Origin: Oscillospiraceae bacterium
GTDB taxonomy: Bacteria > Bacillota > Clostridia > Oscillospirales > JAAYXM01
Direction of reading: 5' to 3'
Length of the DNA stretch: 64,000 nt
NCBI GenBank assembly: GCA_017435965.1
Contig: JAFSEA010000046.1
Span: forward strand, 2,974-66,973
This document shows, one piece after another, positions 33,916 to 50,315 of this stretch; position 1 is the first letter of the stretch, and each line of letters opens with the position of its first letter. The notes beneath the pieces were generated by a model, which ran no database searches, was not told where the DNA came from, and worked only from the letters and a program-made list of their open reading frames with translations. The translations under genes were made by a program, and so were the position numbers.

Positions 33916-35847
33916 ATGAAAATTATGGTTTGCCACGTAGGCTTAAATGAAACGGTGGAGTTTGCATCGGAAGAGCTTCGCCGATACCTTTACAAGATAG
34001 ACAAAACCATCGAAGTTGAAATCACCTCGTATGATACATATAATCCAACACGAAATGATGCCATTTGGCTCATTGTCGATCCGGCACTTGCACCTGAAGT
34101 TTCGGATCCTTCAATGGATGATGCTTTTCGCATTACTATAAACAACAACACAGGTATGATTGCAGGAACAAATCCCATATCGGTTCTTATCGGTGTGTAC
34201 AGTCTTCTTAAGAAACTTGGATGCAAATGGATTCGCCCCGGTCGTGACGGAGAAGTTATTGAAGAGAAGATACTCTCTCCTCTCAATTTCAATTATGAAG
34301 AAAAGGCGGCTTACCGTTTCAGGGGCATTGACCCTGCCGTAGGCACATCTCTTCAGAGAAACATTGACCTGATTGACTGGCTTCCCAAAGAGGGAATGAA
34401 CAACCATTTCAAAGAAATGCTTTCTCCTGAAAAGGGATATAAAAAATACAAGGAATATGAAGACTTTACCGACGAGGATTGCATGGCTACCTTCAAAACA
34501 ATCGTCCGTGAGATGAAAAAGAGAGGAATCAAACGTCATGGAGTGGGTCACGGTTGGCATATGGAAGCAATCGGATTTCACGATCATTCAGATTGCTGGA
34601 AACTTTCTGATGATGACCTCACCGAAGAGCAACATTCAATGCTTGCTCTCCGTGACGGAAAGCGCAATCTGTATCTCGGTCGCAACCTTTTCGGCACACA
34701 GCTCTGCTATTCTCAGGATAAAATCCGTGATTCAATCGTAGGGCAGATTGTGGATTATCTCGGGGAGCATCCCGAGATTGATTATCTGCATTTCTGGCTT
34801 GCAGACGGTTGTAACAACCATTGCGAATGTGAGGAATGTCAGAAACACAGACCATCAGACTGGTATGTAATGATGCTTAACGACCTTGACAGACGTCTTA
34901 CGGAAGAAGGAATCAAGTCACGGGTTGTTTGCCTTATTTATGTTGACCTTTTGTGGGAGCCTGTTGAGTTTTCAATAAACAATCCCGACAGATTCATTCT
35001 TATGTTTGCGCCCATCACAAGAGAGTATGATACAAGCTATTCAGATTTTGATAAGCCTGCCGAGAAGATGCCTTATGTCCGCAATAAGCTTGTTTGGCCG
35101 GCTTCTGCAGCTGAAAATATCGCATATCTCCGTGATTGGCAGGAAAAGCAGATTAAAGGCGATTCATTCCTCTTTGATTATCATCTTATGTGGAATCAGT
35201 ATAAAGACCCAAGCTTCCGCAATGTTTCAAGAGTTGTTTATGAAGATATGTATAACCTCAAAAACCTTGGACTCGGCGGAAATATATCCTGCGAAGTATT
35301 CACAGGTCAGATTCCCAATGATTTCCCCAGAAGAATTATGGCAAGAACACTCTGGAACAGAGATGTTGACTATTACGAAGAAGAAAAACAGTGCTACGAG
35401 GAAACTTACGGATCGGGTGCAGACAAAGCAGCCGAATATCTTGCAAAGCTTGCAGATGTATTCTCTTTAATGTATCGCTATTATAAAGAACCCGAAAACA
35501 CACGTGAAGAACAGAAGGCATTTGCCGCAAATGTTGAAAAAATTGTAAATGACTTTAAGCCTGTAATCAAAAAGTACCTTGAGGCTGACCTTCCCCGTGC
35601 TCAGCACATTTCCTGGGAGCTTCTTGATGCACAGACGGAATATAACATTGAGCTTGCACGGGCATATTGCGCAAAATACATCGGTGAAGAGAAAACTGCG
35701 GATGAGCATCTTGAGAAGTTCAATAAAATCTGCGACGATATTGACGAAAAATATGGCTACTACTTCAATGCCAATCAGGCAAAGTATTCCATAAAACAAT
35801 TTTACAATGAGATAACAAGAGAGGGTCCCAGAGTTATTATTCAATAA
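33916..35847 (+). CDS. DUF4838-like putative glycoside-hydrolase-related protein, copy 1
   Basis: The N-terminus FASEELRRYLYKI resembles the GH20b/GH67N-like lead-in of DUF4838 proteins. Conserved block HFWLADGCNNHCECEECQKHRPSDWYVMMLNDLD. Paralog of 40088-42031. Family assignment is from memory. Confidence 0.55.
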   Translation: MKIMVCHVGLNETVEFASEELRRYLYKIDKTIEVEITSYDTYNPTRNDAIWLIVDPALAPEVSDPSMDDAFRITINNNTGMIAGTNPISVLIGVYSLLKKLGCKWIRPGRDGEVIEEKILSPLNFNYEEKAAYRFRGIDPAVGTSLQRNIDLIDWLPKEGMNNHFKEMLSPEKGYKKYKEYEDFTDEDCMATFKTIVREMKKRGIKRHGVGHGWHMEAIGFHDHSDCWKLSDDDLTEEQHSMLALRDGKRNLYLGRNLFGTQLCYSQDKIRDSIVGQIVDYLGEHPEIDYLHFWLADGCNNHCECEECQKHRPSDWYVMMLNDLDRRLTEEGIKSRVVCLIYVDLLWEPVEFSINNPDRFILMFAPITREYDTSYSDFDKPAEKMPYVRNKLVWPASAAENIAYLRDWQEKQIKGDSFLFDYHLMWNQYKDPSFRNVSRVVYEDMYNLKNLGLGGNISCEVFTGQIPNDFPRRIMARTLWNRDVDYYEEEKQCYEETYGSGADKAAEYLAKLADVFSLMYRYYKEPENTREEQKAFAANVEKIVNDFKPVIKKYLEADLPRAQHISWELLDAQTEYNIELARAYCAKYIGEEKTADEHLEKFNKICDDIDEKYGYYFNANQAKYSIKQFYNEITREGPRVIIQ

Positions 35848-35916
35848 TTAAACATAGTTGTTCGGGGAAAAGTTTGTAGTATTCACAAAACTGATTTCAT
35901 ACAAAAATGAGGATTG

Positions 35917-37707
35917 ATGATGAAGCTGAGATATAAAATATACAAAGAAAAAGTATACGGATGCTTTACCGGCAAAAGCGTAGGTGGTACATTGGGGATG
36001 CCGTTTGAAGGACAATTGGACGTAGACTCGGTTACATATTATGATCCTGTACCAACCGAAATGGTGCCTAACGACGACTTGGATTTGCAGGTGGTCAATC
36101 TTGAAACGCTTCTTCGCACAGGTTTTCCGGTTTCCCGTCATCATATCGGCGAAATCTGGTTGCACCATATGGAAGATAATGCCCCTGATGAATATAGTGT
36201 CGGCATAGCAAACCATAAGCTCGGCATCAGAGGACCGCTTTCGGGGCAGTATCGCAATAAGTTCCACAGCGGTATGGGTGCCGCGATTCGCAGTGAACTT
36301 TGGGCGTGTGTTGCTCCTGCGAATCCAAAACTTGCAGCACTTCTCGCAAGAGAAGATGCCTGCACTGATCACACAGGTGACGGCATATATACGGAAATGT
36401 TTCTCGCTGCTGTTGAAAGTCAGGCATTTATAGAGAACGATTTGGAAAAACTCATCCAAACGGGACTTGAGTTTGTGGACAAAGAAAGCAAGCTTTATAA
36501 AGTCTTTGGAGATGTTATTCGTTTGTATAAAGAAACGAAGGATGTCTATGCAGTAAAAGAGTATATATTGAGACAATATCCTTGTGATAACTGGACAGAT
36601 GTAACGATAAATGTTTCGTTTATTCTTTTGGCATTAATAGCTTCCGATGGCGACTTCGACAAAGCAATTTGCACAGCTACTTCATTGGGATATGATGCTG
36701 ATTGTACTGCCGCTACAGTCGGTGCAATTTTTGGAATTATGAAACCTGACAGTATTGACGAAAAGTGGACAAATCCGATAGGCGATGCTTTGGTTCTTTC
36801 GCCTTGCATTGTTAATATGCATAGCTTTGATACAATAAGTGAGTTTTGCGAAGTGGTAATGTCTGTTGCGAATTATGCACAAGAGTATTATCAAACAGGA
36901 ATACAGTTTGAAGGCGCTGACGGTTTTGCTGATATACGTCTTGCAGATAGCTGGACGGATGATTACAAAAGTCTTTATGATTGGAAAATCGGAGCAAAGG
37001 AATCCCTCCTGACGGGCTTGCCTTGCCTGATGAGCTTGGTCTATCCGGAAGAGGTTGCTGCCGAACCGGGTAAAAGTAAGGAATACACCTTGAAATTATG
37101 CGCAGATAAAGACATATCGGGTTCTGTTAAATTGTTTGTGCCGGAAAAGTGGCAGGTATCTTCGGAAACGTTCTCGTTCAATCTTTCAAAAGGTGAAACA
37201 AAAGAAATTTCGTTCTTTGTTAAACCTGATGCAGAACAAGGGTTGAGATGTCAGAAAAATATTTTAACGATGCGTTTTTGCATAAATGGTGTTACTTTTG
37301 TGCAAGAGGCAGGACTTCCTGTTTCAACTCCGTGGATGGTTACTGCTGCCGATGGCAGAGAGTACGTATATGAAGCAACGTCCATTTACTTCCCGGTTCC
37401 GTCGGGTGAGTACAGATATAAAACGCGCGTAAACTCACCGATACAAAAAAATGTTCGTATGGCATGCAACGGAACAAGACCGTTTATCGTTAAATTGAAT
37501 GGTGAAACAGTGTATGAAGGCGATGGTTCTTTCTATGTACCTGCATTTCATCGCGGAGATACCTGGACAAACGTTGTGTTGAATACCGGAGCATCAAATG
37601 AGATAGAAGTTGTTTTCCCTGAATATAAAGAGGGCGAGTTCTTCTTTGGTTTCGGAACAACCTTCGGATGTGCAACATGGTTAGATACGATTGAAAGAAC
37701 GCTCTGA
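35917..37707 (+). CDS. ADP-ribosylglycohydrolase (ARH) family protein with ~250-aa C-terminal extension
   Basis: ARH motifs are present: GCFTGKSVGGTLGMPFEG, NDDLDLQ and LGYDADCTAATVGAIFG. The extra C-terminal region after about aa 340 looks beta-rich. Start is ambiguous among TTG 35914, ATG 35917 and ATG 35920. Confidence 0.75.
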   Translation: MMKLRYKIYKEKVYGCFTGKSVGGTLGMPFEGQLDVDSVTYYDPVPTEMVPNDDLDLQVVNLETLLRTGFPVSRHHIGEIWLHHMEDNAPDEYSVGIANHKLGIRGPLSGQYRNKFHSGMGAAIRSELWACVAPANPKLAALLAREDACTDHTGDGIYTEMFLAAVESQAFIENDLEKLIQTGLEFVDKESKLYKVFGDVIRLYKETKDVYAVKEYILRQYPCDNWTDVTINVSFILLALIASDGDFDKAICTATSLGYDADCTAATVGAIFGIMKPDSIDEKWTNPIGDALVLSPCIVNMHSFDTISEFCEVVMSVANYAQEYYQTGIQFEGADGFADIRLADSWTDDYKSLYDWKIGAKESLLTGLPCLMSLVYPEEVAAEPGKSKEYTLKLCADKDISGSVKLFVPEKWQVSSETFSFNLSKGETKEISFFVKPDAEQGLRCQKNILTMRFCINGVTFVQEAGLPVSTPWMVTAADGREYVYEATSIYFPVPSGEYRYKTRVNSPIQKNVRMACNGTRPFIVKLNGETVYEGDGSFYVPAFHRGDTWTNVVLNTGASNEIEVVFPEYKEGEFFFGFGTTFGCATWLDTIERTL

Positions 37708-37779: not shown

Positions 37780-38673
37780 ATGGAAACAAGATGGTTACAT
37801 ACAACAAGTGAAGATTTTAAAAAGCTCCGTGAAGAATCGGAAAGAGTGTGCGTTATTCCTATGGGATGCCTTGAAAAACATTCCGTTTATCTTCCTCTGG
37901 GCACCGATGTTATCATAGCAAATAATATGGCATATGATGCATCTCAGCTTGAAACAGTATGTGTTTTCCCTGATTTCGCATTCGGTGATGTTCCCTGCGG
38001 TGACCATGCGGCTCGCCCTGACGGAACAATCGCCCTTGATGTTCGCATACAGATGCTTTTGCTGGAGAATCTTTGTGGCGAGATTTCCGCAAACGGCTTT
38101 AATAAAATTCTCGTTGTAAATGGTCACGGCGGAAACCTTCCGTGGCTCCAGACCTTTGCAAGAAATCTCGGTTGCAAGCCTCATAAATATGTTTTTGCAT
38201 ATGTGGATGTTCCCGATACAGTTCCGCATCAGATGGCAGAGTTCCTCCTTGAAAAAGGAAGCGGTTCTATTCCGGAGCTTACGGCGGAGGATGAAGAGCT
38301 TATAATCAAATACTACAAGGCTGATATGCAGCTTGGCCACGCCTGCATGCAGGAGGCGGCATACACTATGGAATATGCCCCCGAAAGCGTACATCTTGAC
38401 CGCCTTGGAAGAGAAGACGGCTCTCCGAGAGACCTACCCGAGCTTCAGAAGCTTCTTGACCTTAAAGTGCGCCTTTCCATGGGCGGTTGGGATCATTTAT
38501 ACCCCGACTGGTATGCAGGGGATGACCCATATGGACTCAATGAGCGTATAGCACGCGCCGCAACAAGAATTGCCACGGAAAAGCTTGCAGAGGTCTATAA
38601 GGCATTTAAGGAAGATAAGTTCCTTCTCGGACGTGCAAAAGAAAACTACAAGGACAAAACTTGGTTTGAATAA
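37780..38673 (+). CDS. Creatininase-family amidohydrolase
   Basis: RBS AAGGAGG. Family signature IPMGCLEKHSVYLPLGTDVIIA ... DGTIAL ... ILVVNGHGGN. Confidence 0.8.
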   Translation: METRWLHTTSEDFKKLREESERVCVIPMGCLEKHSVYLPLGTDVIIANNMAYDASQLETVCVFPDFAFGDVPCGDHAARPDGTIALDVRIQMLLLENLCGEISANGFNKILVVNGHGGNLPWLQTFARNLGCKPHKYVFAYVDVPDTVPHQMAEFLLEKGSGSIPELTAEDEELIIKYYKADMQLGHACMQEAAYTMEYAPESVHLDRLGREDGSPRDLPELQKLLDLKVRLSMGGWDHLYPDWYAGDDPYGLNERIARAATRIATEKLAEVYKAFKEDKFLLGRAKENYKDKTWFE

Positions 38674-38697: not shown

Positions 38698-40032
38698 ATG
38701 AAAACAGGTTTTTCAAAAGTTTGCATCAATCCGCCTTACGGTGCGCCGATGGTGGGTTATTATGAAGCTCGTTTTGTTAAGGGAATTGAGCAGAATCTTT
38801 ATGCAAGGGCTGTTGCGTTTGATGACGGATGCAAAAAGGCTGTTGTTATTGCCGTTGATGTTATCGGCCTTACCTTGGATTTCTGCAATATGGCAAAAGA
38901 TGCTATTGCCGCTTCAACGGGAATTGAGAAAGATGCAATTTTTATAAACTTCTCACATACACACACAGGCCCTCTTGTGGGAGAAGACTTCGCCTCGGAA
39001 ACAAAAAGCTCCGATGCCTATAATGATTTTCTCATCACAGGTATCCGTGATGCGGCAATATATGCACTTGACGATCTTTGTGAGTCGAGATTTGAGGTAG
39101 GGGATGCCGAGGCAAAGAACATCTCATTTATCCGCCGTTACAGAATGAAAGACGGCGGAGTTGTGACAAACCCCGGTGCTTATAACGAGAATATTGACCA
39201 TCCGCTGGGGACTCCCGATGAAACCGTGAAGCTCGTTAAAATAGTGAGAGACGGTAGCGACGATATATTCATAATCAATTTCGGAACACACGCCGATGCG
39301 GTAGGCGGAGAATATATAAACTCGGATTATATGGGATATGCGTGTTCCACCCTTGAAAAGGCAATCCCCGGAATAAATTGCATTTTCCTTCTCGGTCCTC
39401 AGGGAGATGTCAATCACATCAACATCAACCCAACAAAAGGCGAATGGAATATTCTCGAGGATAAAGAAGCCGTGTGTCCACATAGTGTGCGACACTCTCA
39501 GCATATGGGAAGAGTTATTGCAGGTGCAGTCCTTTCGGTATGCTCCGTTACGGAGGAGATAAACGCCGATAGGATTTCGTATGGTGTTAAAGAAGTACAG
39601 CTTCCCTCATACCGGGAAAATGACAAGCTTGATGAAGCAAGAAGAATCTGGACACTCCACGAAAGCGGAAAAGATGACGAGCTTCCATACAAAGGAATGG
39701 AGCTCACAACGGTTATTGCGGAAGCAAAGCGAATTGTCGGGCTTGAAAACGGTCCGGAATCTTTCCCGTTCCTTATTTCGGCGTTAAGAATAGGCGAGCT
39801 TGTTTTTGCCGGAATCGGCGGTGAGCCGTTTACGGAAATAGGTGTAAGGATATCGGATGCATCGCCCTTTAAAAACACAATAGTATGTTGCCTTACAAAC
39901 AATAGTGGAAGCTATATTCCAACAAAAAGCGCATACGATGAAGGTGGATATGAGGCAAGAGCCTCTGTTCTTATGCCCGGCGGTGATGATATCATCGTTG
40001 AAGGTGTGGTCGAGCTTTTAAAAACACTTTAG
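38698..40032 (+). CDS. Neutral/alkaline ceramidase-N-terminal-like hydrolase, copy 1
   Basis: The N-terminus KTGFSKVCINPPYGAPMVGYY...LYARAVAFDDG matches the ceramidase_alk-type lead motif. Paralog of 42047-43378. No signal peptide. Confidence 0.65.
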   Translation: MKTGFSKVCINPPYGAPMVGYYEARFVKGIEQNLYARAVAFDDGCKKAVVIAVDVIGLTLDFCNMAKDAIAASTGIEKDAIFINFSHTHTGPLVGEDFASETKSSDAYNDFLITGIRDAAIYALDDLCESRFEVGDAEAKNISFIRRYRMKDGGVVTNPGAYNENIDHPLGTPDETVKLVKIVRDGSDDIFIINFGTHADAVGGEYINSDYMGYACSTLEKAIPGINCIFLLGPQGDVNHININPTKGEWNILEDKEAVCPHSVRHSQHMGRVIAGAVLSVCSVTEEINADRISYGVKEVQLPSYRENDKLDEARRIWTLHESGKDDELPYKGMELTTVIAEAKRIVGLENGPESFPFLISALRIGELVFAGIGGEPFTEIGVRISDASPFKNTIVCCLTNNSGSYIPTKSAYDEGGYEARASVLMPGGDDIIVEGVVELLKTL

Positions 40033-40046
40033 TTATAAAACCGAAT

Positions 40047-40089
40047 AACAAACGCCTTGTGAATTGACACAAGGCGTTTGTTATTTTTT
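40047..40089. terminator. Bidirectional rho-independent terminator between convergent operons
   Basis: Perfect 15-bp stem AACAAACGCCTTGTG / CACAAGGCGTTTGTT with a 6-nt loop, followed by ATTTTTT. Overlaps the stop of the minus-strand gene. Confidence 0.85.
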
Positions 40090-42031
40090 AGAGAATTACA
40101 ACTGTTTTCTTATCGGCAGGGCCGCTTATTTTGTCTGCAATACTTACGCAGGCAAGATAAAGGTCAAAATAACGCTCAATATAAATCTCGTATTCGGAAA
40201 ATTTGTGGAGAAGGCGTTTCATAGTTGCTGATGCCATAGAATTGTTGCCCAAAGCCAGATAGCTTATGAACTCTGCCATTCCCGAAATCCATTCTGTGTG
40301 GTATTCGATGATTTTCCAGGAAACCGCACGGGCACGGATGGGATTGTTTTTCTCACTTGAAACAAGTGGTGCGAAGTCTTTGAGAAGCTCTGCAACCTTC
40401 TCTTTGCAATCGCTCATTTCAAGATTATAGTGCTTGCCCTTTTCGGGATTTTGTGACTTAAAGCCTGAAATATATTCAAAGTCAAAAATATCACGGACAC
40501 GCTCAAGATATCCAACAACCTCACGCCACTTATCGCCAAAGGCGTGGGAGAAATAGTCCTCAACAAGTTCATCGAAGCTTCTGCTTTTGTCGTAAAGTGC
40601 TTCGGCATATACAAAAAAGGCAAAGCCCGTGGGGAAAAAGCTTCTCTGTGAGCCGTCCTCAATTATTCCCGAAAGACCTCTTGAATGAAGGGCGTGGATA
40701 TCATCATATAAAAGCTTTCCGAGATACATACCACTCTGGTCTATATACTGCTGCATCCAGAAATGATATTCGTAGCAGAAACAGTCACCCTTCCAATGTT
40801 CCTGCCATCGGCTTAAGTATCCGAGGCATTCTGACATACCCTCGGGAGGTGTGTTTTTGTTGAGACTGAAGGGTTTTGTCGATGCAACATCGGGCGTTTC
40901 TCCGTAGGTTTCGGTATAGAGACGGAAAATCGGGGCATAGAGCATTGTGAAACGCTTTGTGTTGTTAAGCTTTTCTTCAACAGGAGCCCAAAATGTTTCC
41001 GTGTATACGATAAACACAAGGTGGGTATCAAGCCCTCTGCGCTCAAGCTCTGCATCAATATCGTTGAGAAGCATTACATACCAGTCGGAGGGAGTTTTCT
41101 TCCGACATTCACTACATTCACAATGGTTGTTTATGTTGTCGGCGAGCCATATATGAAGAAAATCAACGTTGTTCTGGGTTTCTGCATAGTCGGCAACGTA
41201 GTTTGCCACTACCCGACGTGCCTTGGGATTTGACATACATATGTTTGTGTCGGAGGGGCGGCAGAAAACGCCACGCTTTCCGTTGACTTCGGCAAGAAGC
41301 ATAAGAGTATCTTCGGGAATGTTTTCCTGAACACCACGGAGGCTTCCGTCAAGTCCGAAGGGAAGGCAGGTCCAGCCGTGACCCATATCGTGAAAGTGAA
41401 GTCCGCGCTTTTCAATTTCCACCTCGCATTGTCTCTTCCATTGGAGAATTGTTTCACGGGTTACGGGCTCAGGCTCACGGAAGGTGTTGTGGACATGGTT
41501 ATAATACTGGTCGTAGTAATAGGTGGGGATATCAAATTCCAGCATAAATGTGTTAAGTCCTATTTTCGGAGTGAAGTCAATGGCTTCAAGCATATTGCTC
41601 TGGAATTCCGAGCCCTCGTTGCATTGACCACGATAGCGATGGTCAGCAAGATGACGATAATCAACGGGAGGGAGATTCTCAAGAAGCGGAATGTGCTCAC
41701 CGTCAACTCCGGGGAAAAGCCAACGACAACCGCACTCACGGAGATAGCGATAGACGGCGATAAGAAGTGCGCCATAGTTTGTGCCGGCAATGATTCCGCC
41801 TTTTTCGGTTGTCTTTATATAGATGATATCATCAAGTGCAGGTATCTTTGCATCTGAAATATCAAGTCCGAAGTCCTGCATAAGACCGAGTTTGAAGCCA
41901 TCCGTTTCATCGGCAGATGCATTTATCGGAATATTGCCTCCCCTCGGAAGCATCATACGAAGATATTTTTTAAGCTCCTCTGCCGCAAAAATTGCGGTGG
42001 GGTGTGCTGTGAGAGTTGAGATTGAATACAT
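40088..42031 (-). CDS. DUF4838-like putative glycoside-hydrolase-related protein, copy 2
   Basis: N-terminus FAAEELKKYLRMM; conserved block LHIWLADNINNHCECSECRKKTPSDWYVMLLNDID. Same length class as copy 1 (647 vs 643 aa). Confidence 0.55.
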   Translation of the reverse strand: MYSISTLTAHPTAIFAAEELKKYLRMMLPRGGNIPINASADETDGFKLGLMQDFGLDISDAKIPALDDIIYIKTTEKGGIIAGTNYGALLIAVYRYLRECGCRWLFPGVDGEHIPLLENLPPVDYRHLADHRYRGQCNEGSEFQSNMLEAIDFTPKIGLNTFMLEFDIPTYYYDQYYNHVHNTFREPEPVTRETILQWKRQCEVEIEKRGLHFHDMGHGWTCLPFGLDGSLRGVQENIPEDTLMLLAEVNGKRGVFCRPSDTNICMSNPKARRVVANYVADYAETQNNVDFLHIWLADNINNHCECSECRKKTPSDWYVMLLNDIDAELERRGLDTHLVFIVYTETFWAPVEEKLNNTKRFTMLYAPIFRLYTETYGETPDVASTKPFSLNKNTPPEGMSECLGYLSRWQEHWKGDCFCYEYHFWMQQYIDQSGMYLGKLLYDDIHALHSRGLSGIIEDGSQRSFFPTGFAFFVYAEALYDKSRSFDELVEDYFSHAFGDKWREVVGYLERVRDIFDFEYISGFKSQNPEKGKHYNLEMSDCKEKVAELLKDFAPLVSSEKNNPIRARAVSWKIIEYHTEWISGMAEFISYLALGNNSMASATMKRLLHKFSEYEIYIERYFDLYLACVSIADKISGPADKKTVVIL

Positions 42032-42046
42032 AATTTTACCTCCGTT

Positions 42047-43378
42047 TTATTCTTGTGCGAAAAAGAGATTATCAAGAACTTCTTTTCCTGTTTCCGTCAG
42101 TTTTTTTGCAGTCCCCTCTTTGTAACGTGCGCTTAAAACTTCATAGCCGCCGTCGGCATAGGTAGAGTCATTTGGGAAATATCCTTCATATCCGTTTGCA
42201 CAACAGGAAATGAAGGTCATTTTAAACTTTGAACTTTCCTTTATTCTGCGTCCGATATCGGTAAAGGGTTCGCCCGGCAGACCGAGAATTGCAAAATCTC
42301 CGATTGAGAGACCCGAAACGTAAAGCTCTTTAAAGTCGGGAGCATTTTCGAGCTTTACCATTCTCGTTGAAACAACAAGATTGAGAATAGGGATGAGATC
42401 GCCTTTCTGCGGAATTTCATCGTCTCTTCCGCTTTCGTGAAGGTCTACTATAACACGGGCTTCACGAAGCTCTTCTTCCGTTGCCTTGTTGTGGGGGACA
42501 TTTGTGTTTTTCTGATATGCACGGATGGGAGTAGCTTTTGTTTTCTTTGCCATTGCACGGAGTGACATTGCCGTTCCTGCAATGGTGCGCCCCATATGAC
42601 GGGAAAATTCATAGCCTGCTTTCAGCTCACCGTCGGGAGTTTCAACGTTTATGTGATTTGTATCACCCTGAGCACCGTTTATGTACATACAAAGGGAGTT
42701 TTCAACTGCCGCTTCATACGTTCTGCGCACAAATCCGGGATAGTCTGCGGAAAGCTCAAGACCTCCCACAACATCGGGATGAACCTGGAAGTTTATGATT
42801 GCAATTTCGGGAGCATTTTCACGGACAAAGTTTATGAGTGCAACACGTCTGTCGGCATCACCGTCGGGGAAGGTTTCAACGCTTGTGTCAAACTTTCCCG
42901 TGTTTGCAACGAGCTTTCCATCCTTTGTTTTGCGACGGCGGATAAAGGAAATATCAACGGGAGTTTCCGCTGAATTTGTGTACATCTCGGAAGGCTTCAT
43001 ATCGTCAATCGCCATTTTAGCCAACCCCGAAAGCTTGTCTGTAAGAGACAACATAAGCTCATGATACCTTTCATCGGAAAGATCCGTTACGGGGTATGCA
43101 AGATGAGTGTGGGTGCAGGAGATAAAGACCGCTTCACGGGAAAGCCCATATCGCTTTGCAATTTCATCGCGGACAAGGTCGCAGAACTCCTGCCTGAGAC
43201 CCAAAACATCCGCACTAATTATAACGGCAGTTGTTTTTCCGTCATTTACTGCAACGGCTGTTGCAAGAAGGGGATCGAGTATACCTTCCGAAAGTCTTTC
43301 GTGATAATAGCCGGACATATTATGTCCGATGGGCGGTGTGATGTCAATACGGGCAAATCCTGCTTTTAAATTTTCCAT
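42047..43378 (-). CDS. Neutral/alkaline ceramidase-N-terminal-like hydrolase, copy 2
   Basis: N-terminus KAGFARIDITPPIGHNMSGYYHERLSEGILDPLLATAVAVNDG. 443 aa vs 444 aa for copy 1. Lies 15 nt upstream of DUF4838-like copy 2. Confidence 0.65.
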   Translation of the reverse strand: MENLKAGFARIDITPPIGHNMSGYYHERLSEGILDPLLATAVAVNDGKTTAVIISADVLGLRQEFCDLVRDEIAKRYGLSREAVFISCTHTHLAYPVTDLSDERYHELMLSLTDKLSGLAKMAIDDMKPSEMYTNSAETPVDISFIRRRKTKDGKLVANTGKFDTSVETFPDGDADRRVALINFVRENAPEIAIINFQVHPDVVGGLELSADYPGFVRRTYEAAVENSLCMYINGAQGDTNHINVETPDGELKAGYEFSRHMGRTIAGTAMSLRAMAKKTKATPIRAYQKNTNVPHNKATEEELREARVIVDLHESGRDDEIPQKGDLIPILNLVVSTRMVKLENAPDFKELYVSGLSIGDFAILGLPGEPFTDIGRRIKESSKFKMTFISCCANGYEGYFPNDSTYADGGYEVLSARYKEGTAKKLTETGKEVLDNLFFAQE

Positions 43379-43391
43379 ATGGAGTGCCTCC

Positions 43392-44177
43392 TTATAAATC
43401 CTCTGTTTGTATATTTGCCGCCATTTGGCTCTTTTTATATAAACCGGGAGTTATATTCATATACCTTTTAAACATTTTGTTGAAATAATAAACGTCTGTG
43501 AATCCACAAATTTCCGACACCTGCTCAATGGTATATATCCCCGTGAGAAGAAGATTTGATGCGTGGTCAATCTTTTTGCGGAGGATATACTTTCTCGGAG
43601 TCTCGCCGTAATACTCTTTAAAAAGAGTTGTGAAGCGGCGCTCACTCAGGGAGCACATATCCGCAAGAGCCGAGTTTAAAAGGGTACTTGTGAGATAATT
43701 TGTTTCTATATAGTCAAATGCCTTTTGCAAAACGGAGCTTTTGGGGGAAATATGATGCTCTTTCTTTTGCATACCGTCAACAATGTGAAACACTTCATAA
43801 AGGGCGGATAAACAATAATAGAGGTTTGAAGTCTCGTTGAGGTTGTTGTTTGCAAGAAGCTTCTTGAAAATCGTTCTGATTCTTAGATTGTTTTCGCAAT
43901 CAATCGAAAAACTCTCCATATCCGTATCACCCGTGAAAACAACACAAATGCTTTCTGTGGGTTCTTCGAGAACTACATCATAAGCATCGTTTTTTGACAA
44001 AAACAGAAGTGTGTCTTCCTTGTTGCGGAAAGAGTTGTTCTTTGTTTTATGAATGTTTTTTCCCGAGGTGTGATATGCAAGATAATGGGCACTCCGGGGT
44101 GCAGGAGCGTGCCAGGAAGGTTCATCGCTGTAAAAAAGGTGAATGCTTATGACATTTTCAATATACAGTTTCTCCAT
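43392..44177 (-). CDS. AraC family transcriptional regulator (first gene of the minus-strand operon)
   Basis: C-terminal AraC HTH (LADMCSLSERRFTTLFKEYYGETPRKYILRKKIDHA ... VSEICGFTDVYYFNKMFKRYMNITPGLY). Start chosen at MEKLYIE (GGAG 9 nt upstream). Confidence 0.8.
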   Translation of the reverse strand: MEKLYIENVISIHLFYSDEPSWHAPAPRSAHYLAYHTSGKNIHKTKNNSFRNKEDTLLFLSKNDAYDVVLEEPTESICVVFTGDTDMESFSIDCENNLRIRTIFKKLLANNNLNETSNLYYCLSALYEVFHIVDGMQKKEHHISPKSSVLQKAFDYIETNYLTSTLLNSALADMCSLSERRFTTLFKEYYGETPRKYILRKKIDHASNLLLTGIYTIEQVSEICGFTDVYYFNKMFKRYMNITPGLYKKSQMAANIQTEDL

Positions 44178-44347
44178 AGTCATCATCTCCGTATATAAAG
44201 GTAACACAAAAATACAAACAAAGTCAATGTATAATACGGATTTGCCGGGAATTATATTTCCGTTTTATACAAAAGTGCAATTTCGCACATTGAAATTCAT
44301 TATAAGTAAGTATAGACTTGTAATTAAGTGAGGAGTATTTCGCAAAA

Positions 44348-46612
44348 ATGTGGAAAGAGGTATTGGAAATGGAATATGCTTCAATAAAAAAAGAACTTAA
44401 CAAATATTATTTGGATGTCGCTCCGAAAAGTGCAAAGAAACTTCAGAAAGAATGTTTTGCGTTTCTGGATGAAGCCGCAAAAGAGATTTCCGATGCCGAC
44501 AATTTCACTCTAAAAAGTATGCAATATAAATGCATTGCCGACAAAATTGAACCCGTTATATTTCCGAAACTTCCATTCTATTTCGAAATGGGCTCAATGC
44601 ACCCCTTTTGTGACGGGCATTATCTGCGAGGAATGCTTCATGCAAACGGCTGGCTCATTCAGAAAAATGAACACATTTTCAGAGAAGAAAATCCTCATAT
44701 GAACAAAGTCCGCATTGCAAACACGGGAGAAAAGCTCTATCTCGGCGATGAGATGTATTTTGATCTTGAGCATTTCAGTATTCCCTTGAAAAAGATATTC
44801 AAGGGAGGTCTTCGCGGTGTTTGGGAAGAGGCAAAACAGACTCTCCAAAGATGCGAAACCGAAGCTGAGAGAAAATTCGTCCTCACCGCAATAGACGGAA
44901 TTGAGGCGGTAAAGTCTCTTTCCGAAAAGTTTTCAAAAAAGGCAGAAGAGCTTGCTCTCACGGTTACAGACGAAAGTGAGAGGAAAAACCTTGAGCTTAT
45001 CAAAGAAACTGCCGCACGTATTCCCTGGGAAGCACCAAAGAGCGTTTATGAAGGCCTTGCCACAATAGCCTTTATGCGAAAAGCCGTGGGAAGCCTCGAA
45101 GGAGTCGGCTACAACACCATGGGAAGAGTTGACGTTCTTCTTTATCCCTTATATGAAGAGGATAAGAAAAAAGGCATTTCGGACGATGAGATTTATGACC
45201 TTGTCTGCAAATTCCTTCTTATATGGGATGCTCATATCGACAAGGTAAAAGAAATGTCGGGCTATGCCGACTATGAATATGAAAATGCGTTGACCCTTGG
45301 CGGTTGCGACAAAGACGGAAATGAAGTATTCAATGAAATAACAAAATTTTTCTTAAAGGCACATTATGAGCTTGACAATACATATCCGAAAATAATGTGT
45401 CGCTATTCGGCTAAATCATCAAAGGAATATATCGGTATGATAACCGAGCCGATACTGAATAAAAAAAGCGTCCTGCTCTATTGCAATGACGACAAGGTTA
45501 TGCCGGCAATGAAAAAGCATGGCTTTTCGGATGAACACATATATGATTATACCGTTTCCGGTTGCTGGGACATAGGTATTGATGATTACTGTCACGGTCA
45601 ATGCGGACAGTATATAAACGTTCTTCGTGCTCTTGAATGGTCAATGTATTTTCCTAAAGAGAAAATAGAAAATTGTGAGCTTTCCTTAAAGCCTCTTGAA
45701 AATGCCTCCTCCTTTGAGGAAGTATATGAGATTTTTATGCATAATCTTATGCAGATTATATATAAGAAAGCGGAGCAGGAGGCCTTCGGCACTCGCAACT
45801 GGTCGAGAATTTCACCTCTTTGCCTGACCTCGGCTTTGACATACGGACCTTTTGAAAAACGCCGTGACCACACCGATGGGGGTAGCACATATAACTGGGA
45901 AGCAATGCTTCTTGCGGCAGTTCCGGATGCAATAGATTCCCTTATTGCCATAAAAACCCTTTGCTATGATAAAAAGGTCTGCACTTTGAAAGAACTCATA
46001 GAATGTTGCAGAAACAACTGGGACAATGAGGTTTTGCGGCAGATGGCAATTTCCGCACCGTCATACGGCGATGGCTCGGAAGAAGCGTCAAGGCTTATTG
46101 CAAAATTTGTTGATGATGTATATAATAAAACAAGAAATCTGCCAACGGCATATGGCGGAAGCTGGCAGATCGGCTCATATATGTATACCGAGATAATCTG
46201 GTGGGGAAAAGAAATTGCGGCAACTCCCAACGGTCGCCGAAACGGGGAACTCATATCTCAAGGATTTACTCCGTCAAGACTCAAAAAGATTGATTCCGTA
46301 ACGGATGTATTCACAAGCCTTTGTTATCTTGACAGCGAAAAGCTTTCGCAGGGAGTCGTAATAAACGTTGTTCTTCCTGCGACAAATATGACCGGAGATA
46401 TAATCGAGAGCTTTCTCCGGGGATGTGCAAGGTCAAACACATATATAATGCAGATAAATTGTGTTGACAAAGAGGATTTGCTGAAGGCACAGAAGAACCC
46501 CGAAAACTACGGACACATAATAGTGAGAGTCTGCGGCTTTTCGGCGCAGTTCATAAGCCTTTCAAAAGAATATCAGGACGAGTTTTTGAGTCGGAATTTC
46601 TATATCAATTAG
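44348..46612 (+). CDS. Glycyl radical enzyme (PFL2/dehydratase-like superfamily), function unknown
   Basis: C-terminal glycyl-radical motif IIVRVCGFSAQF (Gly codon 46535-46537). Upstream blocks ATPNGRRNGELISQGFTPS and QINCVDKEDLLKAQKNPENY. Candidate Cys loop TVSGCWD (Cys codon 45563-45565), 324 aa before the Gly. An alternative start at ATG 44369 has a better RBS (AAGAGG). Confidence 0.85.
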   Translation: MWKEVLEMEYASIKKELNKYYLDVAPKSAKKLQKECFAFLDEAAKEISDADNFTLKSMQYKCIADKIEPVIFPKLPFYFEMGSMHPFCDGHYLRGMLHANGWLIQKNEHIFREENPHMNKVRIANTGEKLYLGDEMYFDLEHFSIPLKKIFKGGLRGVWEEAKQTLQRCETEAERKFVLTAIDGIEAVKSLSEKFSKKAEELALTVTDESERKNLELIKETAARIPWEAPKSVYEGLATIAFMRKAVGSLEGVGYNTMGRVDVLLYPLYEEDKKKGISDDEIYDLVCKFLLIWDAHIDKVKEMSGYADYEYENALTLGGCDKDGNEVFNEITKFFLKAHYELDNTYPKIMCRYSAKSSKEYIGMITEPILNKKSVLLYCNDDKVMPAMKKHGFSDEHIYDYTVSGCWDIGIDDYCHGQCGQYINVLRALEWSMYFPKEKIENCELSLKPLENASSFEEVYEIFMHNLMQIIYKKAEQEAFGTRNWSRISPLCLTSALTYGPFEKRRDHTDGGSTYNWEAMLLAAVPDAIDSLIAIKTLCYDKKVCTLKELIECCRNNWDNEVLRQMAISAPSYGDGSEEASRLIAKFVDDVYNKTRNLPTAYGGSWQIGSYMYTEIIWWGKEIAATPNGRRNGELISQGFTPSRLKKIDSVTDVFTSLCYLDSEKLSQGVVINVVLPATNMTGDIIESFLRGCARSNTYIMQINCVDKEDLLKAQKNPENYGHIIVRVCGFSAQFISLSKEYQDEFLSRNFYIN

Positions 46613-46621
46613 GAGATATAT

Positions 46622-47410
46622 ATGAAGATAGCAATTTCCAACATTCAGAATTTCTGTGTTCACGACGGACCGGGAATACGAACGGTTTTCTTCCTTTCGG
46701 GATGTCCTTTGCGATGTAAGTGGTGTCACAATCCCGAAACGTGGGAAAGCTCTCCCTCCATTGCGTTTGAAAAGGAAAGGTGCATTTTGTGCAAAGGCTG
46801 CAATGTATGTTCACAGGGTGTGCATACATTCCGGGGAGAACATCTCATAAACCGAAGTCTGTGCAAAAGATGCGGAAGGTGCATTGAAAATTGTCCGACA
46901 AAAGCTATTTCTTTTACTGCAAGAGAATATGAGGAGAGGGAAATTCTTGAGATTATAGATAAACAAAGTGCGTTTTTCGGAGACGTCGGCGGAGTTACCT
47001 TCTCCGGCGGCGAGCCCCTTACGCAATGGGAGAGGGTAAGCCGTCTCTGCAAGAACATATCGGTATCAAAAGCTGTTGAAACCTGCGGATATACAGGGAG
47101 CGAAACATTTAAAAAAATGCTCTCCGATGTTGACTATGTTATGATGGATATAAAGCTTTATGACGAAAGTCAACACATAAAATATACGGGAGTATCGAAT
47201 AAGCCGATACTTGAAAATCTTAAGCTTTTAAAAGAAAGTGGTATCGACTGTTGCATCCGCACTCCGCTGATTCCCGGGATTACCGATACGGAAGAAAACC
47301 TTTCCGGAATACAGGGAATTATAGGTGATCTCCCGTGGGAGAAGCTTCCGTATAATGCGATTACACCTCAGAAGTATGAAAGACTCGGAATGACTTTTTC
47401 GCTTTCTTGA
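46622..47410 (+). CDS. Glycyl-radical enzyme activating protein (radical SAM)
   Basis: FCVHDGPGIRTVFFLSGCPLRCKWCHNPE (CX3CX2C at 46703-26), plus two ferredoxin-type Cys clusters (CILCKGCNVC, CKRCGRCIENCP). Lies 9 nt after the GRE stop. Confidence 0.9.
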   Translation: MKIAISNIQNFCVHDGPGIRTVFFLSGCPLRCKWCHNPETWESSPSIAFEKERCILCKGCNVCSQGVHTFRGEHLINRSLCKRCGRCIENCPTKAISFTAREYEEREILEIIDKQSAFFGDVGGVTFSGGEPLTQWERVSRLCKNISVSKAVETCGYTGSETFKKMLSDVDYVMMDIKLYDESQHIKYTGVSNKPILENLKLLKESGIDCCIRTPLIPGITDTEENLSGIQGIIGDLPWEKLPYNAITPQKYERLGMTFSLS

Positions 47411-47442: not shown

Positions 47443-48402
47443 ATGAAGACGGGAGTTGAAGCTGTGTATACAGGAATAGACATAGGAGGAACAAAGTGTG
47501 CAGTTGTGAAAGGCAACAGCTGTGACGGAATTGTTGAAAAAATCAGATTTGACACCACCGATGTTGAAGAGACTTTAAAAAATATTTTTGAGGCAGTGGA
47601 AAAACTGGGGAATACAAAGGCAATCGGAATAAGCTGCGGTGGGCCTCTTAATTCGAGAAAAGGCATAATAATGTCACCGCCAAACCTTCCCGGATGGGAC
47701 AATATACATATTTGTGATATGCTGAGAGACAGATTTAATGTTCCGGCAGGATTACAAAACGATGCAAATGCCTGTGCTCTTGCCGAGTGGAAATATGGCG
47801 CGGGAAGAAATACAAGAAATATGATTTTCCTCACCTTCGGCACAGGTCTCGGAGCAGGTCTTATCTTAAACGGAAGGTTATATTCGGGAACAAATGATAT
47901 GGCAGGAGAGGTTGGTCATATAAGGCTCTCGGAATTCGGCCCCGTTGGGTATGGAAAAAGCGGATCCTTTGAAGGCTTCTGTTCGGGAGGAGGAATCGCA
48001 GGACTTGGCAGGTTGATTGCGGAAGAATGGTTACAGGCAGGAAGAAAAACAGCTTTTTGTAAATCTTATGATGACCTTGATAAAATAAACGCAAAGCTTA
48101 TTGCGGAATGTGCAAAAAACGGTGACGAAGCGGCAAAGAAGGTGTATAACATTTGTGCCGAAAAGCTCGGCACAGGCCTTTCAATTTTGATTGATATATT
48201 AAACCCCGAGCGTATTGTAATCGGAAGCATATTTGAGCGAAGTGAAAATCTTCTCCGTGAAGGTATGCAGAAAGTAATTGAAAAAGAAGCACTTAAGTAT
48301 TCGAAGAATGTCTGTGAAATCGTTCCGGCAGAGCTTGGAGATTCAATCGGTGACTGGGCAGCCATTGCCGTTGCCCAAAATTGTGTTTGCGAGGATGTGT
48401 GA
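47443..48402 (+). CDS. ROK family protein (putative sugar kinase) lacking the Cys-rich zinc motif
   Basis: Contains GIDIGGTKCAVV, NDANACALAEWKYGAG and GTGLGAGLILNGRLYSG..MAGEVGH. The usual CxCGxxGCxE position reads VGYGKSGSFE. Confidence 0.75.
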   Translation: MKTGVEAVYTGIDIGGTKCAVVKGNSCDGIVEKIRFDTTDVEETLKNIFEAVEKLGNTKAIGISCGGPLNSRKGIIMSPPNLPGWDNIHICDMLRDRFNVPAGLQNDANACALAEWKYGAGRNTRNMIFLTFGTGLGAGLILNGRLYSGTNDMAGEVGHIRLSEFGPVGYGKSGSFEGFCSGGGIAGLGRLIAEEWLQAGRKTAFCKSYDDLDKINAKLIAECAKNGDEAAKKVYNICAEKLGTGLSILIDILNPERIVIGSIFERSENLLREGMQKVIEKEALKYSKNVCEIVPAELGDSIGDWAAIAVAQNCVCEDV

Positions 48403-48405
48403 ATT

Positions 48406-49002
48406 ATGAAAGAATTGTTTGAAAGATACCCAAAATTAGAAGCGTGCAAAGAAGATATCGAAAAAGCTCTTGAGCTTATTTTGGATACATATAAAAATGG
48501 AGGAAAAGTTCTTCTTTGCGGAAACGGCGGAAGTGCCGCGGACTGTGAGCATATTGTGGGTGAACTTATGAAGGGCTTTAAGAGTATGAGAAAGGTTTCG
48601 GATGAGAGACTTCCCGAGGAAATACGGGAGAAACTCCAGGGCTCATTGCCTGCAATATCCCTTCCGAGTCAATCTGCCATAATATCGGCATACTGCAATG
48701 ATATTTCACCCGAGATGGTATATGCCGAGCTTGTATACGGCTATGCCAAACGTGAAGATCTCGTAATTGCCCTGTCAACATCGGGTAATTCAAAGAATAT
48801 TGTCCGTGCGGCAGAGGTTGCGGGGTGTCTTGGGGTAAAAACTCTTGCACTTACGGGAATGGGAGGCGGAGAGCTCTCAAAGCTTGCAACGGTAACGATA
48901 AAAGTTCCCGAAACCGAAACATACAAGGTTCAGGAACTTCATCTGCCGATATACCATTATCTGTGTGCCGAAACCGAAAAAAAGATTTTTGGAAACGAAT
49001 GA
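48406..49002 (+). CDS. SIS-domain phosphosugar isomerase (GmhA/phosphoheptose isomerase-like)
   Basis: Contains LLCGNGGSAADCEHIVGEL and ALSTSGNSKNIV. About 198 aa. Lies 3 nt after the ROK gene. Confidence 0.8.
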   Translation: MKELFERYPKLEACKEDIEKALELILDTYKNGGKVLLCGNGGSAADCEHIVGELMKGFKSMRKVSDERLPEEIREKLQGSLPAISLPSQSAIISAYCNDISPEMVYAELVYGYAKREDLVIALSTSGNSKNIVRAAEVAGCLGVKTLALTGMGGGELSKLATVTIKVPETETYKVQELHLPIYHYLCAETEKKIFGNE

Positions 49003-49122: not shown

Positions 49123-49716
49123 TTGGTTGATGTGGAAGTTCGCCCTTTGTGTAATTCTATTGATGAAATCAGTTTACAAGACGAGAGAAAATTCAAATTA
49201 ACAATTACGGAAGATACGTTAAATGATGCCCAAAGAGAAGAATTTGTTTTTTCTCCAATAAAAAAAGGTTTGCAATTGAATCGGGACTATATCAAAGAAC
49301 TTTCTTTGAGAGAAATTATGTCGGTGATTTTTGTGTTGGCCAATATGGATGAATCTTCTTTGTCAGATGATGCAAAAAAGATCAAGGAAGGCAACCGGGG
49401 TTTTTTACTTTCAATGGTGGCTGAACGGCTGAAAAACAATACTTTTTATGTTGTGTGCACTAAAAATAACGATGTGCCGATTACGATGTCTCAAAATGGT
49501 ATGATTTTTACATTTGTTTATTCGTCAAAAGAGTATGCTGAAACTGCAATCAACGGAGATGTTAATTTGTTGTGCAGAGAAATTTCTTCTCAAAAAACCG
49601 AATTCTGGCAATTGTTAGCACAAAATGGTATTTCTCAGATTGTTGTTGACAACAGCCCTATGACTGTAACTGTACAAGGCTGCTATATGTATTCAATTGC
49701 AACTGTGCAGGAATAG
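49123..49716 (+). CDS. Hypothetical protein (faint SseB-like flavour)
   Basis: ORF with a non-ATG start and no clear RBS. No motif was recognised with confidence. Confidence 0.35.
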   Translation: MVDVEVRPLCNSIDEISLQDERKFKLTITEDTLNDAQREEFVFSPIKKGLQLNRDYIKELSLREIMSVIFVLANMDESSLSDDAKKIKEGNRGFLLSMVAERLKNNTFYVVCTKNNDVPITMSQNGMIFTFVYSSKEYAETAINGDVNLLCREISSQKTEFWQLLAQNGISQIVVDNSPMTVTVQGCYMYSIATVQE

Positions 49717-50253: not shown

Positions 50254-50277
50254 TTTTCGGGTTTGGTTAAAAAACAG

Positions 50278-50315
50278 AACACAGAGCTTTCAAAATCAGA
50301 AGCTCTGTGTTTTCT
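50278..50315. terminator. Bidirectional terminator
   Basis: 12-bp stem AACACAGAGCTT / AAGCTCTGTGTT, with a T-run on + and an A-run upstream. Lies between convergent genes. Confidence 0.65.

Follow-up and report, generated by a model that had tools for sequence, protein, structure and literature searches.

A divergent glycyl-radical enzyme with a Cys-Trp loop, encoded opposite an AraC-family regulator in a glycan locus of an Oscillospiraceae bacterium

The current report deals with the gene for a divergent glycyl-radical enzyme (GRE) in a 64,000-nucleotide stretch of DNA from an Oscillospiraceae bacterium (GenBank assembly GCA_017435965.1, contig JAFSEA010000046.1, positions 2,974 to 66,973 of the forward strand). 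We refer to this stretch as the window and count all coordinates from its first letter. The GRE, of 754 amino acids, is encoded at 44348..46612 on the plus strand, between the gene for a divergently oriented AraC-family regulator and the gene for a radical S-adenosylmethionine (radical-SAM) activase. It belongs to a clade from uncultured gut and rumen Clostridia that, as judged from alignments, is set apart by a tryptophan (Trp407) next to the putative thiyl cysteine, by the lack of a conserved acid at position 408 and by a pair of glutamates in strand beta3 of the barrel. At a probability of about 0.45, we read the system as an AraC-gated GRE that acts on a small, polar substrate of carbohydrate origin by radical 1,2-elimination or ring-opening, with Glu312 as the base and His142 as the acid; the chemical part of this statement is held less firmly than that figure.

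Glycyl-radical enzymes drive major reactions of the anaerobic gut, among them the formation of trimethylamine, H2S, p-cresol and skatole and the use of hydroxyproline and anhydro-sugars, and a 2026 review of the superfamily notes that whole GRE clades are still without an assigned function. The clade described here breaks the CXE motif of the Cys loop, which is the one motif common to all known eliminases and isomerases of this kind. A search of the literature found no description of the clade, of its CW loop or of an AraC-paired GRE.

The enzyme, its activase and their distance from characterised families

The translated gene matches the Pfam models PFL-like (PF02901; 274 bits) and Gly_radical (55.6 bits). 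The initial annotation of this DNA, made without database searches, had placed the radical glycine at Gly730 and the catalytic cysteine at Cys406, and the open reading frame (ORF) and motif positions bear this out: RVCGFSAQF begins at residue 727, which puts Gly730 at nt 46535-46537, TVSGCWD begins at residue 402, which puts Cys406 at nt 45563-45565, and 324 residues separate the two. The 2026 review gives the fingerprint that contains the radical glycine as RVxG[FWY]x6-8[FL]x4Qx2[IV]x2R. The query reads R727-V-C-G730-F-SAQFIS-L738-SKEY-Q743-DE-F746-LS-R749 and fits at every position but one, with Phe746 in place of Ile or Val. Further residues that matter below are His142 (nt 44771-44773), Glu310 and Glu312 (nt 45275-45283), Trp407, Asp408, Tyr422, Tyr613, Glu615 and Arg630; the N-terminal 135 residues matched no Pfam model. 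An AlphaFold2 model built with 40 homologs (pLDDT 93.4, pTM 0.93) was compared by Foldseek with solved structures and gave TM scores of 0.79-0.85, at 16-22% identity, with glycerol dehydratase (GD), CutC, HypD, PflD, 1,2-propanediol dehydratase (PD) and others. This range covers more than 40 GRE chains, and the predicted fold is the PFL-like ten-stranded alpha/beta barrel.

The activase gene (46622..47410, plus strand, 262 amino acids; Pfam Radical_SAM, Fer4_12 and Fer4) starts after a spacer of 9 nt (GAGATATAT), and its product scores 267.5 bits against the NCBIfam GRE-activase model TIGR02494, above the cutoff of 174.35. The radical-SAM cluster CX3CX2C is found at C28-x3-C32-x2-C35, with DGPGIR near the N-terminus, and a ferredoxin-like insert carries two ferredoxin-type Cys motifs, as the initial annotation had also reported. 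The first of them, C54ILCKGCNVC, reads CX2CX2CX2C and is non-canonical in spacing; the second is C81KRCGRCIENC. The cluster, the insert and the score agree with the PFLE/PFLC subfamily of activases. With a barrel, a C-terminal fingerprint, a catalytic Cys and a cognate activase, the query has the features of the GRE superfamily (PFL-like, IPR004184), and by these predicted features it is a real and intact GRE-activase system.

Within the superfamily the enzyme is remote from every characterised member, and the earlier remark that it diverges from known GREs has held up. No NCBIfam equivalog or subfamily cutoff was reached, the shortfall being a factor of 2.5-5: the query scored 275.5 bits against a cutoff of 678.2 for TIGR01774 (PFL2-3 subfamily), 240 against 1000 for HpsG, 201 against 1050 for CutC, 192 against 1100 for HypD and 188 against 1109 for PRK09983. 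The label of this last model says only "formate C-acetyltransferase", and we assume it to be the PflD equivalog. For calibration, Escherichia coli YbiW was run against the same PDB set as the query. Other eliminases and isomerases gave 137-211 bits with the query and 370-550 bits with YbiW; the corresponding scores were 80-115 (BSS 80, MASS 115) and 226-258 for the X-succinate synthases, 72 and 217 for HPAD, and 39 and 154 for pyruvate formate-lyase (PFL), in which case the query matched over the C-terminal region only. Identity to any solved GRE is ~20-25%. Going by these alignment scores, the query is about as remote from the eliminases as other whole GRE classes, namely the X-succinate synthases and HPAD, are from YbiW. 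With a family profile, all eliminases and isomerases were equally distant (253-341 bits), and for this reason no characterised clade is favoured. Assignment to a characterised family was given up, since the NCBIfam models, the PDB searches with the single protein and with the profile, and Foldseek favour none. The second-best PDB sequence match, Archaeoglobus fulgidus PFL2 (2f3o; 195 bits), is similarly short (776 amino acids); its function is debated and it has no assigned role, and it differs from the query in keeping a GCVE loop, in being archaeal and in lying outside the CW clade.

The Cys loop, the beta3 glutamates and the AraC partner of the clade

A search of 5.8 billion clustered proteins returned one protein that is 99% identical to the query GRE, from another sample, and all further matches were at most 62% identical, 735-754 amino acids long, from metagenome-assembled genomes of Clostridia and annotated as hypothetical or as "PFL family". 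Among species-representative genomes a scan identified 535 relatives, of which 80 loci were kept for the counts on related loci given below (some of these counts add the window, for a total of 81). All 80 are from metagenome-assembled genomes of uncultured gut or rumen Clostridia, and their taxa include Oscillospiraceae, Acutalibacteraceae, Christensenellaceae, Faecousia, Flemingiibacterium and Scatosoma. When 1.84 billion representatives were searched exhaustively with HMMER, 883 matches were obtained at E<=1e-30, in which ~70 full-length clusters (730-760 amino acids, 50% identity) score from 781 down to ~230 bits; below ~230 bits the matches blend into generic PFL2-like proteins of ~800 amino acids that score ~200 bits. 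The clade consists of short GREs (~735-760 amino acids) and is spread over hundreds of species-level genomes, all from Oscillospirales or Christensenellales-type bacteria of gut and rumen that are poorly cultured.

Among relatives that are at least 39% identical to the query, the near-invariant residues are H142 in [YF]xDxxH, E310-x-E312-N313 in D[YH]E[LYF]EN[TS] of strand beta3, G405-C406-W407, Y422, Y613-T614-E615 of strand beta8, R630 and R727-V-[CT]-G730-F-S. In a larger set of 324 distinct relatives, Cys406 is kept in 323 and H142 in 315. Position 408, two residues after the cysteine (Cys+2), behaves differently. It is Asp in 25 and Gly in 15 of the sequences of a 40-sequence alignment, varies as D/G/A/S across the clade, and is G/A/S in about half of it, being non-acidic even in relatives that are 53-59% identical. 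The Trp-Asp loop that the initial annotation had offered as a functional signature therefore fails as such, for Asp408 is not conserved, and the signature that the alignments point to is Trp407 without a conserved acid at 408, plus the beta3 Glu pair.

The initial annotation had also allowed that its choice of Cys loop might be misaligned, a worry that is dispelled by HMMER and BLAST alignments. These set G405-C406-W407-D408 of the query opposite G-C433-V-E435 of GD, opposite the GCVE of A. fulgidus PFL2, HpyG and HypD, and opposite the GCTE of IseG and the GCIE of YbiW, with Cys406 aligned to GD C433, HypD C434 and YbiW C441. According to the 2026 review, the CXE motif is kept by six C-O eliminases, CutC, the C-S lyases and three isomerases, which are all of the characterised ones, and its glutamate is hydrogen-bonded to the substrate and is usually the base. 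The query has C-W-D at these positions. PFL and TdcE have two adjacent loop cysteines, whereas G-C-W-D has a single one, and the earlier statement that the loop fits neither the Cys-Cys pair of PFL nor CXE stands.

The acid that is missing from the loop might have a counterpart in strand beta3. In 117 of the 324 relatives Cys+2 is Glu, and only one of these has Glu312; in the remaining 207 Cys+2 is not Glu, and Glu312 is present in 202 (the 324 are distinct and are not phylogenetically independent). The single sequence that has both a GCWE loop and the beta3 Glu pair (as HEMET) is P0139, a protein of 794 amino acids from the representative library, and it is possible that it represents an evolutionary intermediate. 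Neighbour-joining trees were rooted on YbiW; the sequences in them are 30-40% identical and the topology is weak. In these trees CWE sequences without the Glu pair are nested within the clade that combines CW[DGS] with ExE in 50 of 50 bootstrap replicates, other CWE groups without the pair are basal, and a second large uncharacterised clade, with GCQE loops and a "PETST" motif, is the sister group of the CW clade. The CW[DGS] plus ExE set is not, on account of the CWE sequences inside it, a simple monophyletic group, and the Trp-bearing loops taken together are polyphyletic. Because a CWE group nests inside the CW[DGS] plus ExE clade, there are hints that the exchange of acids occurred more than once or was reversed.

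The alignments also relate residues of the query to the active sites of known enzymes. Glu312 aligns with Tyr339 of GD and, when the alignment is anchored gap-free on the conserved beta3 Gly-Gly, with Phe340 of HypD, a residue that contacts the substrate and whose neighbour, Asp339, is essential. Two HypD residues that bind the substrate carboxylate, Tyr450 and Thr645, align with Y422 and Y613 of the query. His142 aligns with His164 of GD, which is proposed in the 2026 review to protonate the leaving hydroxyl, and with His165 of YbiW; the HypD counterpart is His160. His281 and Ser282 of GD align with Tyr255 and Asn256, and Arg676 of IseG with R630, the arginine of the universal P-N/D-G-R. The sulfonate-binding Arg187 and Gln191 of IseG were also considered, and their mapping onto the query was set aside since the N-terminal alignment is unreliable.

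Taken as a group, GD (Clostridium butyricum, 1r8w) and the other GRE 1,2-eliminases (PD, HypD, HpyG/HpzG, CutC, IslA/IseG, HpsG and HpfG) resemble the query in the ten-stranded barrel with its Gly and Cys finger loops, in the C-terminal glycyl radical domain, in an activase of the type with a ferredoxin-like insert, and in the histidine and arginine just mentioned. They differ from it in that the query has C-W-(D/G/A/S) for CXE and Glu312, within E-x-E-N, for the aromatic residue of beta3, is ~40-90 residues shorter, has a dedicated AraC regulator gene adjacent to it, and lies in a locus without microcompartment or aldehyde-processing genes.

The AraC-family regulator (43392..44207, minus strand, 271 amino acids; Pfam HTH_18 and HTH_AraC, with the helix-turn-helix at residues 181-259) is the most regular neighbour of these enzymes. 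A divergent AraC homolog of 250-270 amino acids lies directly upstream of the GRE in ~72 related gene pairs, with spacers that are typically 70-185 bp long. The identity matrices of AraC and GRE are correlated at r=0.69, a value reached by 0 of 999 Mantel permutations and to which shared phylogeny contributes. The N-terminal ~180 amino acids of the regulator, presumed to be a sensor domain, match no Pfam family even at E=1 and for that reason provide no clue to the ligand. In the window the gene is directly followed on the minus strand by a ceramidase-like and then a DUF4838-like gene; the initial annotation had it head this second pair, which is correct as to position, but it is primarily the divergent partner of the GRE. 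What the related loci conserve as a module is the divergent pair of AraC and GRE genes, next to which about half of them have the activase.

The divergent control region (44208..44347, between the two genes) was read as sequence, scanned for promoters and used for motif counts. It contains ATTTGCCG at 44240-44247 and ATTTCCG at 44256-44262, with a promoter-like site (44290-44318) and a ribosome-binding site, GAGGAG (44330-44335), both lying 3' of them. The motif TTTCYGT is present in the sense direction upstream of 20 of 74 family GREs, compared with 4.65 expected and a maximum of 11 in shuffled sequences, and the upstream regions of close relatives have ATTTCYGTWTTTTACAAA in common. We infer from these motif counts that the element at 44240-44262 is a candidate operator of the paired regulator. 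In addition to the window (44240-44262), the ATTTCYGT element was seen upstream of the GREs of loci L001, L002, L003, L029, L036, L049, L053, L070 and L085; it is sometimes a direct repeat, with a spacing of ~16-21 nt, just upstream of a -35-like TTTACA. With a paired AraC sensor and a motif conserved upstream, reporter screening would be a practical way to find the substrate.

Proposed chemistry and the alternatives to it

In the reaction that we favour, Gly730 would receive its radical from the radical-SAM activase; Cys406 sits on a finger loop that meets the Gly loop within the barrel. The AraC protein would sense the substrate, or a precursor of it, and switch on the operon. The thiyl radical of Cys406 would abstract a hydrogen from a hydroxylated carbohydrate derivative that is small and polar, and the base, relocated from the Cys loop to strand beta3, would be Glu312, which, with help from Glu310 or Glu615, might deprotonate the adjacent hydroxyl. 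His142 would protonate the leaving group, and the outcome would be 1,2-elimination or ring-opening at a C-O bond or possibly at a C-N bond. Since the clade is without the glutamate of every characterised eliminase and isomerase, the chemistry or the substrate is probably new, and since pocket residues 255, 311, 408-415, 419 and 611 differ between paralogs, the substrates of these probably differ as well. The apparent relocation of a catalytic glutamate is a concrete prediction that can be tested by mutagenesis, and identification of the substrate would add a step to anaerobic glycan catabolism and possibly a new type of GRE reaction. A wider generalisation, which we put forward tentatively and consider somewhat unlikely, is that the CW(D/G) clade makes up a new mechanistic class of GREs, in which the acid/base function has moved to the beta3 Glu pair, a Trp lies beside the thiyl Cys, and many AraC-gated, substrate-specific paralogs serve uncultured gut Clostridia in the oxygen-independent radical cleavage of monomers from glycans, such as deacylated amino sugars, sugar acids or fragments of nonulosonic acids, that are not covered by known pathways.

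Several observations weigh against the favoured reaction. E310, E312 and E615 are assigned to the pocket through alignments to GD and HypD, of which the latter, as produced by HMMER, has a 3-residue gap at the E310/E312 stretch. The anticorrelation between E312 and a loop Glu is largely clade structure, reflecting one or a few events in trees of weak topology. The activase lies directly 3' of the GRE in only ~37 of 81 loci, no metabolic partner is ever constant, and many of the neighbours are unrelated housekeeping or biosynthetic genes. Elimination is also not guaranteed because phenylacetate decarboxylase (PAD, or PhdB) is likewise without a loop Glu, having Gln484 two residues after Cys482.

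This last point leads to the alternative that the enzyme is not an eliminase at all and instead belongs to a base-free class that carries out, for example, decarboxylation, C-C cleavage, or isomerisation or epimerisation by hydrogen-atom shuttling. The variability of Cys+2 (D/G/A/S) would be in keeping with such a reaction, as would the distance of the clade from the eliminases, which is about that of the X-succinate synthase and HPAD classes, and no solved or reviewed GRE whose loop was inspected has an invariant Trp beside the thiyl Cys. PAD resembles the query both in the missing Glu and in having a Trp near the Cys loop, the essential Trp495; it differs in that its substrate is an aromatic acid, whereas the pocket of the query is predicted to be polar and acidic, not aromatic or hydrophobic, and its context is carbohydrate-related. 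The best sequence and fold matches, moreover, are still eliminases and isomerases, the histidine that corresponds to GD His164 and HypD His160 is invariant, and the operon has no small-subunit ORFs, unlike the systems for HPAD-type decarboxylases and for X-succinate synthases such as BSS and MASS. We hold a base-free reaction to be unlikely.

The alternative that lies closest to the initial annotation is that the GRE acts on a phosphosugar that is derived from the surrounding glycan locus and made by the two genes that follow the activase, in the manner of YbiW and PflD. The operon continues, as had been annotated, with genes for a ROK-family sugar kinase (47443..48402, plus strand, 319 amino acids; Pfam ROK E=3e-54) and a GmhA-like phosphosugar isomerase with a single SIS domain (48406..49002, plus strand, 198 amino acids; Pfam SIS_2 and SIS). 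The kinase scores 170 bits against a glucokinase subfamily model, missing the cutoff of 260, and 99 bits against NanK, and the isomerase scores 132 bits against the GmhA model, missing the cutoff of 209. The gaps are narrow, 32 nt between activase and ROK and 3 nt between ROK and SIS, and a terminator scan found no terminator-like site inside either of them; two plus-strand matches (48152-48176 and 48355-48377) both fall within the ROK ORF, and a strong terminator-like hairpin appears only past coaD, at 50276-50313, with housekeeping genes such as that for tyrosyl-tRNA synthetase thereafter. The ROK gene is probably co-transcribed with the GRE, and the SIS gene is probably the last of the operon.

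The tight spacing of GRE, activase, ROK and SIS, the same gene order in the contig with a 99%-identical GRE (L081), and the fact that the AraC gene lies in an operon with ceramidase-like and DUF4838-like genes, homologs of which recur beside the GREs of loci L003 and L065, all speak for a phosphosugar substrate. There is a precedent as well: YbiW and PflD are the GRE isomerases of "anhydroglycolysis", which convert 1,5-anhydroglucitol-6-phosphate and 1,5-anhydromannitol-6-phosphate to 1-deoxyfructose-6-phosphate. These enzymes, which have carbohydrate-derived substrates, an adjacent activase gene and sugar-handling genes around them, set the example for a thiyl-radical cleavage of a C-O ring bond, and they render out of date the earlier statement that no GRE with such a role is known; PD, which serves the catabolism of fucose and rhamnose, does so too. 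They keep CXE, however, and hydrogen-bond its Glu to the C2-OH, and the query, which is only 25% identical to YbiW, has no such Glu. The genes beside ybiW encode the aldolase FsaA and a sugar phosphatase, neither of which is present in the context of the query, which also has no PTS component. Given the 25% identity, the missing CXE and the lack of an aldolase context, the query is not a member of the YbiW/PflD family. Above all, ROK and SIS genes occur in 0 of the 80 related loci, relatives at 53-62% identity included, and were found elsewhere only in L081, and the housekeeping genes downstream of SIS mean that the ROK and SIS genes may be only loosely linked to the GRE. They are specific to the locus of this organism and are not a feature of the family. 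The suggestion that these two genes are tied to the GRE is thus tenable for this one paralog, the product of which they would most likely process, or the substrate of which they would prepare, and is not supported across the family. A phosphosugar substrate of this origin seems to us quite improbable.

It is very unlikely that the query is an ordinary dehydratase of glycerol or 1,2-propanediol, or another known eliminase, with Asp in place of Glu. GD is the best single PDB match (E=2e-61, TM 0.84), and Asp408 is chemically similar to Glu. On the other hand, identity is only 22-25%, all NCBIfam cutoffs were missed, and about half of the clade, including relatives that are 59% identical, has Gly, Ala or Ser at position 408. 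The pocket residues of GD, as noted, are replaced at Tyr339, His281 and Ser282, and no genes for 1,3-propanediol dehydrogenase, microcompartments or aldehyde dehydrogenase are present. That the protein might be a degenerate or non-catalytic paralog, such as a regulatory or spare-part protein, is suggested by the many paralogs per genome and by the many copies without an adjacent activase, and can be dismissed almost entirely in view of the invariance of Gly730, Cys406, RVxGFS, H142 and R630 in relatives that are 39-62% identical, the intact ORF with its 99%-identical copy in another sample, the adjacent activase and the confidently predicted fold.

Surrounding genes in the window and in related loci

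The window has the appearance of a glycan locus. Three plus-strand genes (137-6439, 6507-14393 and 23637-32165) encode giant SLH-anchored surface proteins of 2100, 2628 and 2842 amino acids with Big_2 and He_PIG Ig-like domains; two of the three have heparinase II/III-like C-terminal domains, and the three are probably extracellular depolymerases of a glycan. There are two DUF4838-like/ceramidase-like pairs, one on the plus strand (33916-35847 and 38698-40032) and one on the minus strand (40088-42031 and 42047-43378). The 643-amino-acid protein of these pairs has no Pfam match and is nonetheless a homolog of a DUF4838-like protein in locus L003, and homologs of both kinds, DUF4838-like and ceramidase-like, recur beside GREs of the clade in other genomes. 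A GFO/IDH/MocA oxidoreductase (18017-19279) and a xylose-isomerase-like TIM-barrel protein (32192-32983), both on the plus strand, form a pairing that we take to resemble the oxidative-eliminative systems for cleavage of glycosides and C-glycosides and those of inositol catabolism. Solute-binding protein, GNAT-like, S9 and amidohydrolase genes are also found in the window. An unusual combination inside a glycan locus is that of an ADP-ribosylglycohydrolase-family protein of 597 amino acids (35914-37707) with a creatininase-family amidohydrolase (37780-38673), both on the plus strand. Between the SIS gene and coaD there is an ORF of 197 amino acids with a TTG start (49123-49716, plus strand), which gave no Pfam or NCBIfam match and no methyltransferase signal; rsmD often sits upstream of coaD.

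For the related loci, the ORFs of the 80 loci and the window were clustered, and Pfam censuses were taken of 83 operon-linked and 232 nearest neighbours. Neither the clusters nor the censuses revealed a constant metabolic partner gene, and only AraC and the activase recur; no such recurrence in the 80 loci is seen for the window's genes of the ROK, SIS, creatininase, ADP-ribosylglycohydrolase and xylose-isomerase-like kinds. The commonest families of the census, none of them dominant, are ABC permeases (8), SDR and beta-lactamase fold (6 each), GH2, transglutaminase-like and EamA (4 each), and GH127, GDSL and S9 (3 each).

The neighbours of the closer relatives are more suggestive. In L003 (61% identity to the query) the GRE gene is followed by a GH20C-like gene and, further downstream, by the DUF4838-like gene (7123-9039), whose product has 32% identity with each of the window's two DUF4838-like proteins; in L085 (59%) a CE4 deacetylase and an AraC gene precede a beta-lactamase-fold gene, the GRE and the activase; and in L086 (56%) an SGNH esterase gene precedes the GRE and activase. 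Three loci at 53% identity, L004, L083 and L084, which belong to a cluster (P0009) of 134 members, have a DHDPS-family aldolase gene after the GRE. L004 also has genes for a BNR protein, a solute-binding-like protein (with a weak SBP_bac_8 match) and a beta-lactamase-fold protein, and L083 and L084 have a solute-binding protein gene upstream. In L087-L093 (47-48%) a solute-binding protein gene follows the GRE directly or one gene later, most have a second AraC gene and a PnuC-like transporter gene upstream, and GDSL esterases are found in L087 and L091. At 42-46% identity, the GRE of L005 has a GH127-like gene (by Pfam) directly upstream; the ORF cluster of this gene, c15, also has a member in L054, where it lies upstream in the same direction, and one in L075, where it is found elsewhere and on the other strand. 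In L065 (41%) the GRE gene is followed by a ceramidase-like gene (9711-11192).

A theme of carbohydrate metabolism and deacylation next to the close relatives is real but loose, no single gene being constant, and the GRE module has been recruited into varied glycan loci and is not tied to one fixed pathway. The description of the GRE as embedded in a glycan locus is sustained to the extent that such genes recur beside close relatives, but none of them does so constantly. A reading in terms of sialic acid or amino sugars was considered, since DHDPS aldolase, BNR, SGNH esterase, GH20C-like and ROK kinase genes are each found beside different close relatives; it is suggestive only and was not adopted, for the full gene set is present in no single locus.

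Several loci (L020, L042, L043/L051, L030, L048, L061, L067 and L092) contain GRE paralogs in twos or threes, most of which are paired with an AraC gene of their own, and the very distant paralogs among them (21-24% identity) have GCNE, GCYE, GCHE, GCVE or GCNQ loops. It appears that the unassigned GREs of these uncultured Clostridia are unusually numerous and diverse. In L092, a second PFL-like protein of 788 amino acids (10436-12802, plus strand) is encoded downstream of its own activase and has no recorded Gly_radical Pfam match; it may be either a divergent GRE or an aminoacyl radical enzyme, a type that has been described recently.

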